From UHGV virus genome UHGV-0196721: a stretch of 45,223 nucleotides of DNA, one strand, 5' to 3'. The stretch comes from a virus. Position numbers: made by a program. Every line of letters starts with the position of its first letter. Position 1 is the stretch's first letter. Shown here piece by piece: positions 9,001-15,000 of the stretch.

Positions 9001-12000
9001 TTTAGAGGCGCAGGATGTGTTGATAACCTACAGAGGAAAACTACCGGGAATAATTACGGGTTCTCTGAAGAGTCCGCCGAAATGGTAATTTTACCAGCAT
9101 ATTTTTCATCCAGTAATACAGCAAGCCGCCTGAAAGAGTCTTGTTGTTCCTGAGACCATTTGGGATTGCATGATTCAAACTGGATTGATGCCAGCGTTGA
9201 TTGCATCTGTTCCCTTGGAATTGAGAATGCCAGATATGAGAAGGCGACGGTAAGGGTATTCACGTCTTCCCGAAGCCTGGAAATGCTGTCGAGCAACTCC
9301 TGTAGAGAAATGGTGTTATTGTCCATAAATAATCCTCATGATTGTATTGACCTGTTAGCAGCCTGAGGCAACAGGCTGGAACTGATAAACATATCCAGGG
9401 CTCAGAAACCGATAAATCCTGATAAATATCCATGAACGCAAAAATCAGATACGGCCTGTCGGCTGCCGTTCTGGCGCTGATTGCCGCTGGTGCGCCTGCG
9501 CCTGACATTCTCGACCAGTTTCTGGATGAAAAGGAAGGTAACCACACCACGGCATACCGTGATGGTGCGGGTATCTGGACCATCTGCCGCGGTGCCATCC
9601 TGGTGGATGGCAAACCTGTCGTTCCGGGCATGAAGTTGTCGAAGGAAAAATGCGACCGGGTTAACGCCATTGAGCGTGATAAGGCGCTGGCATGGGTGGA
9701 GAAAAACATCAGAGTGCCATTGAGTGAACCCCAGAAAGCGGGGATCGCGTCATTCTGTCCGTACAACATTGGTCCCGGTAAGTGTTTCCCGTCGACGTTT
9801 TATAAACGAATTAATGCAGGTGATCGCAGGGGAGCGTGTGAGGCGATTCGCTGGTGGATTAAGGACGGTGGCAGAGACTGCCGTATTCGTTCAAACAACT
9901 GCTACGGTCAGGTATCCCGTCGTGACCAGGAGAGCGCGCTGGCGTGCTGGGGAATCGACAGATAAGCAGAATATTTTGCTGAAAAATAAGGTATGGCCAC
10001 GCGGGCGGATAACACGAAATCCTGCGAACTGGCGAAACGTAAGTGAATAAAAGTAAAAACCCCGTTTGTTGGCACCAAGCGGGGTTTTGTGTTTCCTGAC
10101 TCCGGAAAAGTCAAAGGAGAAAGTGTGTTTGATTTTAGCAAACTGATTCGGGAGATTCGAGTGATGGCTGAAAAATTATCCACCTGGAAGTTCATTCTTA
10201 TCTGGCTGGTGTTTGTGATTATGGCCTCCGGTTATTTCATCGGTCAGATACGCTGGTGGTGAAATGAACCGCGTACTGTGCGTGGTCATCATTGCCCTGC
10301 TGGTGGCCTGTGGTGCGCTTAGTCTGGGGCTGAATCATTACCGTGATAACGCCATTACCTACAAAGCCCAGCGCGACAAAAATGTCAGAGAACTGAAGCT
10401 GGCGAACGCGGCAATTACTGACATGCAGATGCGTCAGCGTGATGTTGCTGCGCTCGATGCAAAATACACGAAGGAGTTAGCTGATGCGAAAGCTGAAAAT
10501 GAAACTCTTCGCGCTGACGTTGCCGCTGGTCGTAAGCGCCTGCGTATCAACGCCACCTGTCCAGGTCCCGTGCGTGAAGCCACCGGCACCGCCCGCGTGG
10601 ATAATGCAACCGGCCCCCAACTGGCAGACACCGTTACACGGGATTATTTCACCCTCAGAGAGCGGCTGATGACGATGCAGAAGCAACTGGAAGGGGCGCA
10701 GGAATATATCCGTACTCAGTGCCTGAAATAAGTTTTGTTGATGCGCCGTATCGTCGCTGTATTCCCTCATTAACAGAGACCGCAGCCCGACAGGGAGACT
10801 CCTCTGCGCGAGTGTGCGGGGATAATCAAAAACGATACACACCGGGGTTTACCGCGTTAACGGAGCGCGGCGTTGTCCCCTCATAGTCGCCTGTCCGGTG
10901 CGATGGTGGAAGAAACCGGATGTTTATCACTATTAATTGATGACACAGAAATGGATTCATTGAATTTCAGCACGTTTTTGTATTCGTGTTATTGAACATC
11001 TGTTTATTTTACTTTTAACATATTGATAATAAAAAGAGCTGTAAATCTTTAGATGAGTCGATTTTGTCCGGGGAAGTTCAAGTGGATTTTATGCTGACGG
11101 TTTCTGGTGTGGTTATCCTGTCCATTGCTTATACTGCAGATAAATATGGCTGCCATTTGTTATCACGTATTGGCGCTTATTGTTCGTTGATGCTGATTTT
11201 CTCGTCGCTTTTTTTTGAGTAAGTTATATTAATTATAACAAATAATTTTCTGTGTTATTTTTTCAGGCTATCCCGTCAGAGGGGAAGCCTGTACTGCCGG
11301 GGAGCGAATGGAAAACTGATGTGTCCGGTAACTGCGTGTTCTGTGAACACCATGTTACTTAATTATGTAATTCATACCCGAACTCTCTGTTGACAGCCTT
11401 CTTCTGCAGGCTTCAATAACCCACGCTGAAAAGTTTCCTGAACCTTTCAGATCAAGAGCGATGTTAATTTGTTCAATCATCTGGTTTGGAAATCGGATGT
11501 TGCGGGTTGTTGTTCTGCGGGTTCTGTTCTTTGATGACATAATGTTTCCCCATATTCAGTGTTGCTGATTTGTATTATCTGAAGTTGCTTTTACGTTAAT
11601 TTGATGCAGATCAATTAATACGATACCTGCGTCATAATTGATTGTTCGCTGCATAGCGGTCCGACCCCGTACTGCTCACGCAGCTTATCCAGCAGTGGCA
11701 TCATTTTTTCCAGAGGCGGTCGAACTCCGCCTTCGCAAAATAAGCGGAAGCCTGGCGAAGGATATCGTTACTGCGGCGCAGTTCACGATTTTCACGTTCC
11801 AGCTCTTTCAGACGCTGACGTTCAGCGGTGGTGAGCCCTCCATCACCGCCCCCGGTATCCCGCTCATGCTGGCGAACCCAGACACGCAGAGTCTCCGGCG
11901 TACAGCCAATCTTTGGAGCAATGGAACAAATTGTCGCCCATTGTGAGTCATATTCGCTCTGACTTTCCAGAACCATACGGACTGCCCGTTGACGGACTTC

Positions 12001-15000
12001 GGGGGAAAAACGAGTATTTTTAGTCATCCTGTTTACCTCTTTCTCAGGAAGTTTAGTCTCCAGGATTCCCGGGGCGGTTCACACATGTTGTGATAAACCT
12101 TATATAGATGATAATCATTATCATTTTCGTGGGTCCTTTCCGGCGATCCGACCGGTTACGGGGCGGCGACCTCGCGGATTTTCACTATTTATGAAAATTT
12201 TCCGGGATCCATGTCCGGTTTCTCTGCAAGTTAACCATATGAAAAATATAAAAACATGCTTTCCATGAACCGGACATGCGCAAAAAATAGACACTAAAAC
12301 CGGACATGACCGGTTTTGTTGTGATTGTGAGGTGAGAGTTTTTTGCGAGGTGAGGAGTGGCTACGCAGACTGAAGTTGCCAGGCATTTAAGTCTGACCGA
12401 TCGCCAGCTTCGCAGATTGCAGAAATTGCCGGGTGCCCCGATATCGAATAAGCGAGGGCAACTGGATCTGGATGCCTGGCGCGATTTTTACATATCGTAT
12501 CTGAGAAGAAGTAAAAACGATGTGCCTGATGGCGATAGCGAAGACGACTATGAGGAGAAATTGCTTATTGCCAGATGGGAACTGACAGCAGAACAGGCTG
12601 TTACACAGCAGTTAAAAAATGAGGTGTCAAAAGGAAAACTTATTGACACCGGGTTCTGTATTTTTGCCCTCAGCAAGCTGGCAATGGCGTTATCCAGTAC
12701 GCTTGATTCCATCCCTTTATCCATGCAGCGACAGTTTCCTGATTTAACACCGCGCCATCTTGACCATCTGAAAACCCTTATTGCGAAGGGGGCAAATCAG
12801 TGTGCGCGGGCGGGGGATAAATTACCGGATTTACTCGATGAATATATCAGAGCAACAACTGAATAATATGATGAGTGCTGTCACAACAGCATTACAGCCC
12901 CTGATAAGGGCATTGCCGGTGACGCCAGTTGAATGGGCTGATCAAAATTATTATCTGCCTAAAGAATCTTCATATGGTGAGGGAGAATGGAAAACGCTGC
13001 CGTTCCAGATCGCCATCATGAACAGCATGGGGAATGATCAGATCCGGACTGTTAATCTGATTAAATCTGCCCGTGTTGGCTATACAAAGATGTTGCTGGG
13101 AGTCGCCGGGTATTTTATTGAGCATAAATCCCGAAACAGTCTGCTTTTTCAGCCCACGGATTCTGCCGCTGAAGATTTTATGAAGTCTCACGTGGAGGCG
13201 ACGATTCGCGATGTTCCCTGCCTGAAAAAACTTTCTCCCTGGCTGGGACGTAAACATCGTGATAATACCATCACGCTGAAACGCTTTTCATCGGGTGTGG
13301 GCTTCTGGTGCCTGGGCGGCGCTGCCGCCAAAAACTACCGTGAAAAATCCGTGGACGTGGTCTGCTATGACGAACTTTCCTCGTTCGAGCCGGATGTCGA
13401 AAAAGAGGGCTCGCCAACCCTGCTGGGGGATAAGCGTATTGAGGGCTCGGTATGGCCAAAATCCATTCGCGGCTCGACGCCTAAAATAAAAGGCTCCTGC
13501 CAGATCGAAAAAGCGGCCAACGAGTCGGCGCATTTCATGCGTTTTTATGTGCCCTGCCCGCACTGTGGGGAGGCGCAGTATCTGAAATTTGGCGATGAGT
13601 CCACGCCTTTTGGCCTTAAATGGGAGAAGGACAGCCCCGAAAGCGTTTTCTACCTCTGTGAACATCATGGCTGCGTGATCCATCAGTCTGAGCTTGACCA
13701 GAGCAACGGGCGGTGGATCTGTGAAAACACGGGGATGTGGACCCGTGACGGTCTGACGTTTTTCAGCGCCGCGGATAATGAAATTCCGCCGCCGCGCTCC
13801 ATCACGTTCCATATCTGGACGGCGTACAGTCCGTTCACCACCTGGGTACAGATAGTCTATGACTGGCTGGATGCACTGAAAGATCCCAACGGCCTGAAAA
13901 CCTTTGTGAACACCACGCTGGGCGAGACCTGGGAAGAGGCCGTGGGCGAAAAACTCGATCACCAGGTACTGATGGATAAGGTCGTGCATTACACGGCGGC
14001 GGTGCCAGCCCGGGTGGTTTATCTGACGGCGGGCATTGACTCGCAGCGAAACCGTTTTGAGATGTATGTCTGGGGATGGGCTCCGGGAGAGGAAGCCTTT
14101 CTGGTGGATAAAATCATCATTATGGGGCGTCCCGATGAGGAAGAGACGCTGTTACGTGTGGATGTGGCGATCAACAAAAAATACCGCCATGCAGACGGAA
14201 CCGAAATGACCATTTCCCGTGTCTGCTGGGACACCGGGGGGATCGATGGCGAAATTGTCTATCAGAGGTCAAAAAAACACGGTGTTTTCCGGGTGCTGCC
14301 GGTAAAAGGTGCATCTGTTTATGGCAAGCCGGTGATCACCATGCCAAAAACCCGCAATCAGCGGGGCGTGTATCTGTGCGAAGTGGGGACGGACACCGCA
14401 AAAGAAATTCTCTATGCCCGTATGAAAGCCGATCCCACGCCTGCGGATGAAGCCACGTCGTATGCCATCCGTTTTCCTGATGATCCGGAGATTTTTTCGC
14501 AGACAGAGGCGCAGCAACTGGTGGCGGAAGAGCTTGTGGAGAAGTGGGAAAAAGGAAAGATGCGTCTGCTGTGGGATAACAAAAAGCGGCGTAACGAAGC
14601 GCTGGACTGCCTGGTGTATGCCTACGCGGCATTACGTGTGTCCGTGCAACGCTGGCAGCTTGATCTGGCTGTACTGGCAAAATCCCGGGAAGAAGAGACG
14701 ACCCGGCCAACCCTTAAAGAACTGGCAGCGAAGCTGTCCGGAGGAGTGAATGGTTACAGTCGCTGAACTGCAGGCGCTGCGTCAGGCGCGCCTTGATTTA
14801 TTAACCGGTAAACGGGTGGTGTCTGTCCAGAAAGATGGTCGCAGAATTGAATATACGGCAGCTTCTCTGGATGAGCTTAACCGGGCGATCAATGATGCGG
14901 AGTCGGTACTGGGGACAACCCGCCGTCGCCGTCGTCCGCTGGGAGTGAGGTTATGAAACGAACGCCTGTCCTGATTGATGTGAACGGCGTTCCGCTTCGG

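Follow-up and report, generated by a model that had tools for sequence, protein, structure and literature searches.

The cos site of lambda-type phages is about 200 bp long and is made of cosQ, a highly conserved site of 7 bp, cosN and cosB (PMC4669245). In Escherichia coli K-12, an FNR site upstream of ynfO/nohA and of ylcI/nohB was found by chromatin immunoprecipitation (ChIP) on microarrays, and it was shifted by purified FNR (Grainger et al. 2007, PMC1802558); in the supplements of a later study by ChIP and sequencing, the site scores 16.68 bits, the highest value among the rows excerpted, with ylcI given as its estimated target (Myers et al. 2013, PMC3688515). A Fur site of nohA, at -233, has been gel-shifted in K-12 (Chen et al. 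2007, PMC2189734), and ybcW and ylcI are listed as a convergent excludon there. Here we describe the corresponding region of UHGV virus genome UHGV-0196721, a lambda-like E. coli phage whose whole stretch of 45,223 nucleotides is called the window below. Between its Rz gene and cos lie a ylcI/ynfO-family gene (ylcI in what follows), an AT-rich islet with a short hydrophobic open reading frame (ORF) and a truncated insertion sequence (IS).

We conclude that this region is very probably the normal accessory and regulatory spacer that separates Rz from cos in a lambda-type phage, to which a decayed IS has been added. The region is ordinary: its anatomy and its history can be followed through the alleles compared below, whereas what YlcI does, and what the FNR and Fur sites mean for regulation, we only infer. 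None of its components is of a new kind, and RefSeq already holds annotated genomes with the identical allele, so that the novelty is low. An earlier note, made from the sequence by itself, had placed the region between Rz and cos in the slot that lambda fills with bor, and this placement holds.

The ylcI gene and the IS remnant beside cos

The minus-strand ORF of 61 codons that the earlier note had seen between Rz and cos is there (Table 1), but it is not the orphan regulator or remnant for which it had been taken. It is an intact member of the YlcI/YnfO (DUF3950) family, as follows from its family matches, from the nearly invariant DNA block to which it belongs and from the wide occurrence of the adjoining spacer. 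The protein exceeds the curated cut-offs of PF13132 (67.5 bits, cut-off 25; E 9e-19) and of the NCBIfam model NF041551, YlcI_YnfO_N (35.2 bits, cut-off 30), it matches phrog_949 with E 9e-32, and the identical sequence of 61 residues is labelled 'YlcI/YnfO family protein' in RefSeq. The gene also stands in its usual place, since in lambda, DLP12 and Qin a member of the family lies immediately left of cos on the strand opposite to the late operon. In lambda this is an ORF of 64 residues (NC_001416 48109-48303, complement; locus L004 3110-3304), and the reference genome carries no annotation for this conserved gene next to cos. An alignment of lambda, DLP12, a Qin-like prophage, a prophage of a cattle strain and an empty-site relative of the window phage shows hardly any variation in the DNA that runs from the codons for the N-terminal part of YlcI through cosQ and cosN, and the uninterrupted 201-bp spacer from ylcI to cos was found in 2883 of the 5426 complete E. 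coli genomes. The family as a whole is small, with 106 clusters (E up to 0.001) among 1.8 billion representatives. Its conserved core can be written as IRFP-helix-NFSAWV.EAC, and I15, R16, I25, F37, V41 and C45 are invariant across an alignment of 19 members.

The predicted fold of YlcI resembles that of ribbon-helix-helix (RHH) proteins, with modest scores. In an AlphaFold2 model built from the 19 sequences, with a predicted local distance difference test (pLDDT) value of 77, the closest structural neighbours are the RHH antitoxins TacA1, CopA-SO, Rv0298 and ParD2, and the single match that Foldseek returned from the PDB is NikR (2bj3; E 2.9, not significant). NikR has an RHH domain. Sequence comparisons gave nothing of the kind: none of the 19 members matched an RHH family of Pfam (E up to 10), hhalign against Arc gave a probability of 3%, a profile search of the PDB returned no sequence match, and a fold search in BFVD was uninformative. 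That YlcI is an RHH-like DNA-binding protein is likely but unproven, and the literature searched reports no function for it.

The truncated element is an IS3-family remnant of the IS629/IS1203 type. Its make-up had been described correctly as a terminal repeat, orfA and some 20 codons of orfB, and its length, put at 437 bp, is 438 bp. All 438 bp (100%) agree with the full 1310-bp copy found at this site in E. coli CE10, and identity to the annotated IS629 of Stx phages is 99.3%. Of the terminal inverted repeat TGAACCGCCCCGGG, the outer copy is present and ends at 12081; the inner copy is absent from the window and present in CE10. The A-rich slippery site has been kept, and the ALIL pseudoknot has lost 17 of the 20 nucleotides of its terminal loop region (annotated length 100 nucleotides, versus 117 in the full copy). 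A -1 frameshift would yield a product of OrfA, 20 OrfB residues and 9 phage-encoded residues (QSIMTQVSY), read on the minus strand through 11618-11712 and ending at 11618; PGAP annotates the truncated IS product as a transposase pseudogene.

Three alleles of the site allow its history to be reconstructed. In the empty-site allele, found in many genomes (for example B1172), the spacer is uninterrupted and has a single CAC; in the full-IS allele of strains CE10 and N32, the complete 1310-bp element is flanked by CAG...CAC, a 3-bp target duplication with one mismatch; the stump allele, with exactly the junction seen in the window, occurs in 11 RefSeq records (for example 2017C-4173W12). In IMG/VR, consulted for evidence on virion ends, the junction is present only in three contigs, which to judge by their names are prophages predicted in isolate genomes and not virion assemblies. 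Relative to the CE10 allele, the window lacks 900 bp. Of these, 872 bp belong to the IS, with orfB and the inner repeat, and the remaining 28 bp to the flank, comprising 25 bp of spacer and one copy of the 3-bp target duplication. The alleles thus point to two steps. Insertion of an IS629/IS1203-type element came first, at a point 49 bp to the left of cosQ and with 3 bp of target duplicated, a state that survives in CE10 and N32. A single deletion of 900 bp then took the inner end of the IS together with the 28 bp of flank and left the 438-bp stump. The earlier note had raised the possibility that cargo went with this deletion. Comparison with the other two alleles leaves no room for any: no cargo was lost, because the 900 bp are wholly accounted for by the IS and its 28 bp of flank. 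Since 872 bp, with most of orfB and the inner inverted repeat, are gone, the stump cannot transpose on its own. Two routes to the deletion are unsupported, an IS-mediated adjacent deletion in that one endpoint lies inside the IS, and microhomology-mediated joining in that the junction shows no microhomology. The deletion is illegitimate, and not of the classical kind mediated by an IS end.

The closeness of the IS to cos had raised the question of whether packaging is affected. The distance to cosN, given earlier as about 80 bp, is 79 bp to the first base of GGGCGGCGACCT, and the outer end of the IS lies 49 bp left of cosQ and outside cos. Checking the packaging site was a reasonable suggestion, but cosQ, cosN and I2, the 29 bp after the cohesive end (through 12201), are untouched and show full or almost full identity to lambda. 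With three R-like repeats in cosB as well, cos is intact by its sequence. The first of these repeats is inverted relative to the second, an arrangement seen in complex cosB sites (PMC4669245), and the divergent cosB is matched by a divergent N-terminus of Nu1. This divergence begins at a sharp mosaic breakpoint directly to the right of cosN, 12201/12202: up to 12201 the window is 99.93% identical to a related prophage (locus L010), after which cosB and Nu1 differ and megablast finds no match to L010 until 12920. L010 has the same stump allele with a different integrase and attachment site (next to ompW). The stump allele has thus been carried into at least two backgrounds of packaging specificity and integrase, and has persisted through phage recombination.

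These observations bear on two other explanations of the locus. It could be argued that cos or late transcription is crippled, either by the IS stump or because 25 bp of invariant spacer are gone, and that the window represents a dead prophage. The deleted 25 bp do include GCCATCAAACCACG, which does not vary among five lambda-type sequences, what the conserved spacer does is only partly understood, and the IS ends close to cosQ. However, all three parts of the roughly 200-bp cos site (PMC4669245) lie to the right of the IS end, the stump contains no terminator-like site on the plus strand, that of the late operon, and the allele is known together with two different sets of cosB/Nu1 and integrase modules. 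Moreover, all head and tail ORFs of the window are open, and the window is in an excised, circularly permuted (attP) form: its last and first bases (45223 / 1) are contiguous in L010, its integrase gene (35188-36213, minus strand) adjoins the tail-fibre genes, and its chromosomal matches break near 35074 beside a tRNA-Ser. We consider a dead prophage very unlikely. A different proposal is that YlcI, instead of being a transcription factor, assists packaging, either at cos or close to it, or in company with the small terminase subunit. It draws on the position of ylcI next to the gene of this subunit in both lambda-type and HNH-type modules, on the listing of YlcI/YnfO among the genes of capsid-forming phage-inducible chromosomal islands, and on a homologue, P0193 (locus L012 4714-5103), in which the DUF3950 domain is fused to the N-terminal domain of Terminase_2, a terminase small subunit. 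The 6.8-kb contig of P0193 also carries an integrase and a primase and looks like a phage satellite. The fusion is, however, a single protein of 129 residues on one short contig; ylcI is transcribed against the late operon; it is kept in the cryptic prophages DLP12 and Qin, which no longer package; and some members of the family are far from any terminase gene. A packaging role is in our view highly improbable. Taken together, the three alleles are a natural series that could show whether the DNA to the left of cosQ plays any part in packaging or in the expression of ylcI.

Table 1 Features from Rz to the terminase small-subunit gene (positions of the window)
Feature	Position	Strand	Basis and remarks
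Rz spanin gene	10264-10731	+	ORF list; RefSeq loci of identical sequence have 'lysis protein'; borders the region on the left
Rz1	10484-10669		embedded within Rz
Conserved post-Rz segment	10742-10925		GC-normal, non-coding; blastn and alignment
AT-rich islet	10926-11385		GC 0.363, versus 0.520 for the whole window; composition, and alignment with AR_0081, O157 and other prophages
Hydrophobic ORF	11082-11222	+	46 amino acids according to PGAP, 43 from the ATG at 11091; RefSeq 'hypothetical protein' WP_000347013.1
ylcI/ynfO-family gene (DUF3950)	11355-11540	-	61 amino acids, isoelectric point 11.3 (basic); predicted RHH-like fold
Candidate -10 hexamer of ylcI, GATAAT	11574-11579	-	read from the sequence
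Perfect FNR consensus, TTGATGCAGATCAA	11601-11614		pattern search; sole one in the window; its centre is 67.5 bp upstream of the ATG of ylcI
Imperfect inverted repeat, ATCAATTAATACG-N7-CGTCATAATTGAT	11610-11642		candidate operator; repeat search on the empty-site allele (L003 3911-3943)
IS629/IS1203-type remnant (IS3 family)	11644-12081	-	438 bp; outer inverted repeat, orfA, frameshift region, 20 orfB codons
ALIL frameshift-stimulating pseudoknot	11647-11746	-	Rfam RF01497, 75.9 bits, E 6e-19; 3' part clipped by the deletion
IS orfA	11701-12027	-	intact, 108 amino acids; HTH_Tnp_1 (PF01527, E 7e-13)
Perfect 7-1-7 Fur box, TGATAATCATTATCA	12109-12123		8 bp left of cosQ; sole one in the window, 0 expected by chance
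cosQ-like heptamer, GGGTCCT	12131-12137	+	taken by us to be cosQ; identical to lambda, with the same spacing from cosN (alignment)
cosN cohesive-end sequence, GGGCGGCGACCT	12161-12172	+	12/12 identical to lambda
cosB, three R-like repeats	12210-12308	+	CATGTCCGG 12210-12218; CCGGACATG 12270-12278 and 12300-12308
Terminase small subunit (Nu1-like)	12357-12866	+	Pfam Phage_Nu1, E 1e-18; phrog_57, phrog_1790; right border of the region

FNR and Fur sites around ylcI

The spacer between ylcI and cos contains recognition sites for two host regulators and a candidate operator (Table 1). The FNR box has the sequence of the K-12 site that FNR binds strongly (PMC1802558, PMC3688515). The inverted repeat is invariant in lambda, DLP12 and Qin, and in the window it ends exactly at the deletion junction. 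The Fur box recurs in all lambda-type loci that were fetched, DLP12 and Qin among them; in lambda it is at 48452-48466. It lies 233 bp before nohA in locus L020, a Qin-like prophage from a different strain, in agreement with the position reported for K-12 (PMC2189734), and the Fur box of the window is the counterpart of the site gel-shifted there. A promoter-like sequence, TTGTGA-16-GATAAT (12088-12115, plus strand), overlaps the Fur box and starts 6 bp from the end of the IS.

If a class II FNR promoter is defined as a TTGAT-N4-ATCAA box centred near -41.5 together with a -10 hexamer, the putative promoter of ylcI fits this geometry, as the centre of its box would lie about 40.5-41.5 bp upstream of the inferred start, near 11567. 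The geometry of the FNR site appears to fit ylcI rather than nohA/nohB. We propose that YlcI is a small dimeric RHH DNA-binding protein expressed from the prophage, and that a class II FNR promoter, with a perfect box, a GATAAT -10 hexamer and no -35, would make ylcI expression respond to anaerobic signalling in the host, while the Fur box would link the cos-proximal part of the spacer to iron status. On the allele comparison, the IS stump now adds 413 bp between the half with FNR and ylcI and the half with Fur and cos, and IS transcription may read into ylcI, because the stump points the same way as this gene.

Several observations weigh against parts of this reading. In Table S9 of the later FNR study (PMC3688515), neither ylcI/nohB nor ynfO/nohA shows an FNR-dependent change of expression in K-12, and lacZ fusions in the direction of nohA were weak and hardly dependent on FNR (PMC1802558). 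A promoter scan upstream of ylcI found no sigma-70 consensus, the scan being negative because there is no -35. Furthermore, DUF3950 genes also occur outside phage late regions, for example in the interval between a fimbrial operon and a type I restriction-modification system (three NCBI assemblies) and in an integrase-plus-primase element, and therefore the link to cos is not universal; the distant members have heterogeneous contexts and show no consistent gene neighbourhood.

In its widest form, the regulatory idea would be that lambda and its relatives carry beside cos an overlooked RHH regulator, ylcI, which is controlled by FNR and lies next to a Fur site, so that the prophage senses oxygen and iron. 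We hold this to be improbable. If it were true, the IS stump described here would have uncoupled, by a natural event, the half with FNR and ylcI from the half with Fur and cos. In any case, the sites for FNR and Fur that are attributed in K-12 to nohA and nohB belong to a block that is conserved from lambda onward and lies beside ylcI and cosQ, and this placement reframes what these seemingly silent sites might regulate.

The AT-rich islet and the toxin-antitoxin question

The part of the region to the left of ylcI is composed of two unlike segments. The earlier note had reported an AT-rich stretch that abuts the IS fragment, and this is true of the islet at 10926-11385 (GC 0.363) but not of the first part of the interval, 10735-10925, where GC is 0.565. 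The conserved segment after Rz is homologous to lambda 46868-46981, between bor and lambdap78, to DLP12 and to many Stx phages. A conserved peptide in it is ruled out by indels of 1 nucleotide between relatives, no significant RNA fold was found in it (z 0.30 and -1.19), and RNAalifold detected almost no covariation on either strand. An Rfam scan of 9900-12500 (E up to 1) for a known small RNA or riboswitch returned the ALIL element of the IS and two chance matches only, of which the sole one that touches the islet is a chance match to a eukaryotic long non-coding RNA (11385-11491, E 0.3). Within the late operon, in the interval between the lysozyme gene and Rz, there is a strong terminator-like hairpin (10056-10088; 13-bp stem and T-run), followed by an ORF of 57 residues (10089-10262) with a C-terminal hydrophobic segment and a match to phrog_6632, of unknown function. 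In CE10, the prophage that keeps the full IS has an Rz gene whose annotation gives it as frameshifted (locus L002 2566-3032).

The islet, of about 460 bp, is an insertion relative to phages such as AR_0081, whose post-Rz segment directly abuts ylcI, and its right edge provides the last ten or so codons of ylcI. It is found with lambda-type and with HNH-type packaging modules, and a query of 616 bp that covers the post-Rz segment and the islet (10735-11350) is covered to at least 80% in 730 of the 5426 E. coli genomes. Its hydrophobic ORF, convergent with ylcI, runs as described before from an ATG at 11091 to 11222 with 43 codons; PGAP starts it at 11082, where the window has GTG and relatives have ATG, which gives 46 residues.

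Whether this ORF is a gene is doubtful, and it is most likely a by-product of T-rich sequence. One might regard it instead as a real small membrane protein, a moron in the islet that is expressed from the prophage. The islet is a discrete AT-rich insertion, the 616-bp stretch that contains the ORF is present in 730 genomes, the ORF is linked to both types of packaging module, PGAP calls the ORF consistently, and copies that are about 4% diverged show only the GTG/ATG change of the start codon and one synonymous change. Yet substitutions are too few to show selection (2 in 141 bp, versus 8 in 289 bp of flanks), and the ORF, with a grand average of hydropathy (GRAVY) of 1.11, lies on a strand with 41% T, which by itself gives ORFs rich in Phe, Leu and Ile. 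The Shine-Dalgarno sequence is weak. No match was found in Pfam, PHROG, NCBIfam or PADLOC, tblastn revealed no distant relatives in phages, and a search of 5.8 billion proteins returned only 13 clusters, all of at least 84% identity and all named E. coli or unnamed. Several of these are frameshifted or have altered ends, and such changes at the C-terminus are common (P0223, with 46 members, and also P0225, P0229 and P0231). A functional membrane protein thus seems to us possible but rather unlikely.

It had also been suggested that the RHH gene and the hydrophobic ORF resemble what is left of a toxin-antitoxin or regulatory cassette, from which the IS deletion may have taken cargo. Both ORFs travel together in phages with different packaging modules, one of them is hydrophobic, and the closest structural neighbours of the YlcI model are RHH antitoxins. 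However, the two genes are convergent and form no operon, ylcI occurs without the hydrophobic ORF in lambda, DLP12, Qin and AR_0081, the ORF belongs to no family, is not found beyond E. coli and occurs in nature in frameshifted versions too, and the deletion, as seen above, is fully accounted for. We found neither the two adjacent, co-directional and co-occurring genes of a type II system nor any toxin match in PADLOC or Pfam; for a type I toxin there is likewise no protein family, no Rfam match in 10926-11354 and no Rfam type I antitoxin RNA in the region. The idea is largely refuted: it fails on architecture, because the genes are convergent, do not co-occur and include no toxin family, and the resemblance of the predicted YlcI fold to RHH antitoxins is its sole support. 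We give it almost no credence, and return to the reading of the region as a normal spacer with a decayed IS.

Comparison with known systems

Each part of the locus has close relatives from which it departs in particular ways. YlcI is like the RHH repressors and antitoxins (Arc, Mnt, CopG, omega, ParD and TacA) in its size, its basic N-terminal arm, the pattern IRFP-helix-loop(NFS)-helix and the structural neighbours of its predicted model. Unlike them, it has no significant sequence or profile match to the group and no partner toxin. The stump shares with IS629/IS1203/IS3411 (1310 bp, orfA-orfB, -1 frameshift, ALIL) the outer repeat, orfA, the slippery site and the ALIL element, but the inner repeat and the greater part of orfB are missing from it, and its deletion runs past the IS end into flanking DNA. 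The islet resembles lambda-type morons such as bor and lom in being a discrete insertion in the bor slot with a base composition unlike that of the rest of the phage, although it holds no convincing unit of promoter, gene and terminator, and its only ORF has no protein family.

The nearest counterparts are those in K-12 and in lambda itself. YlcI of DLP12 and YnfO of Qin belong to the same family as the protein of the window, which has ~79% identity to the lambda homologue, and their genes have the same place and orientation, left of cos and the Nu1/noh gene, with the same FNR and Fur boxes; in the window, in contrast, about ten C-terminal residues of YlcI come from the AT-rich islet, and the IS stump lies between ylcI on one side and the Fur box and cos on the other. 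Compared with lambda cos, the cosB site and the N-terminus of Nu1 are of a different specificity type. The right end of lambda consists of bor, lambdap78, lambdap79, the unannotated 64-residue ORF and cos. The block from ylcI to cosN is nearly identical in the window, whereas bor, lambdap78 and lambdap79 are replaced there by the 184-bp conserved segment and the 460-bp AT-rich islet.

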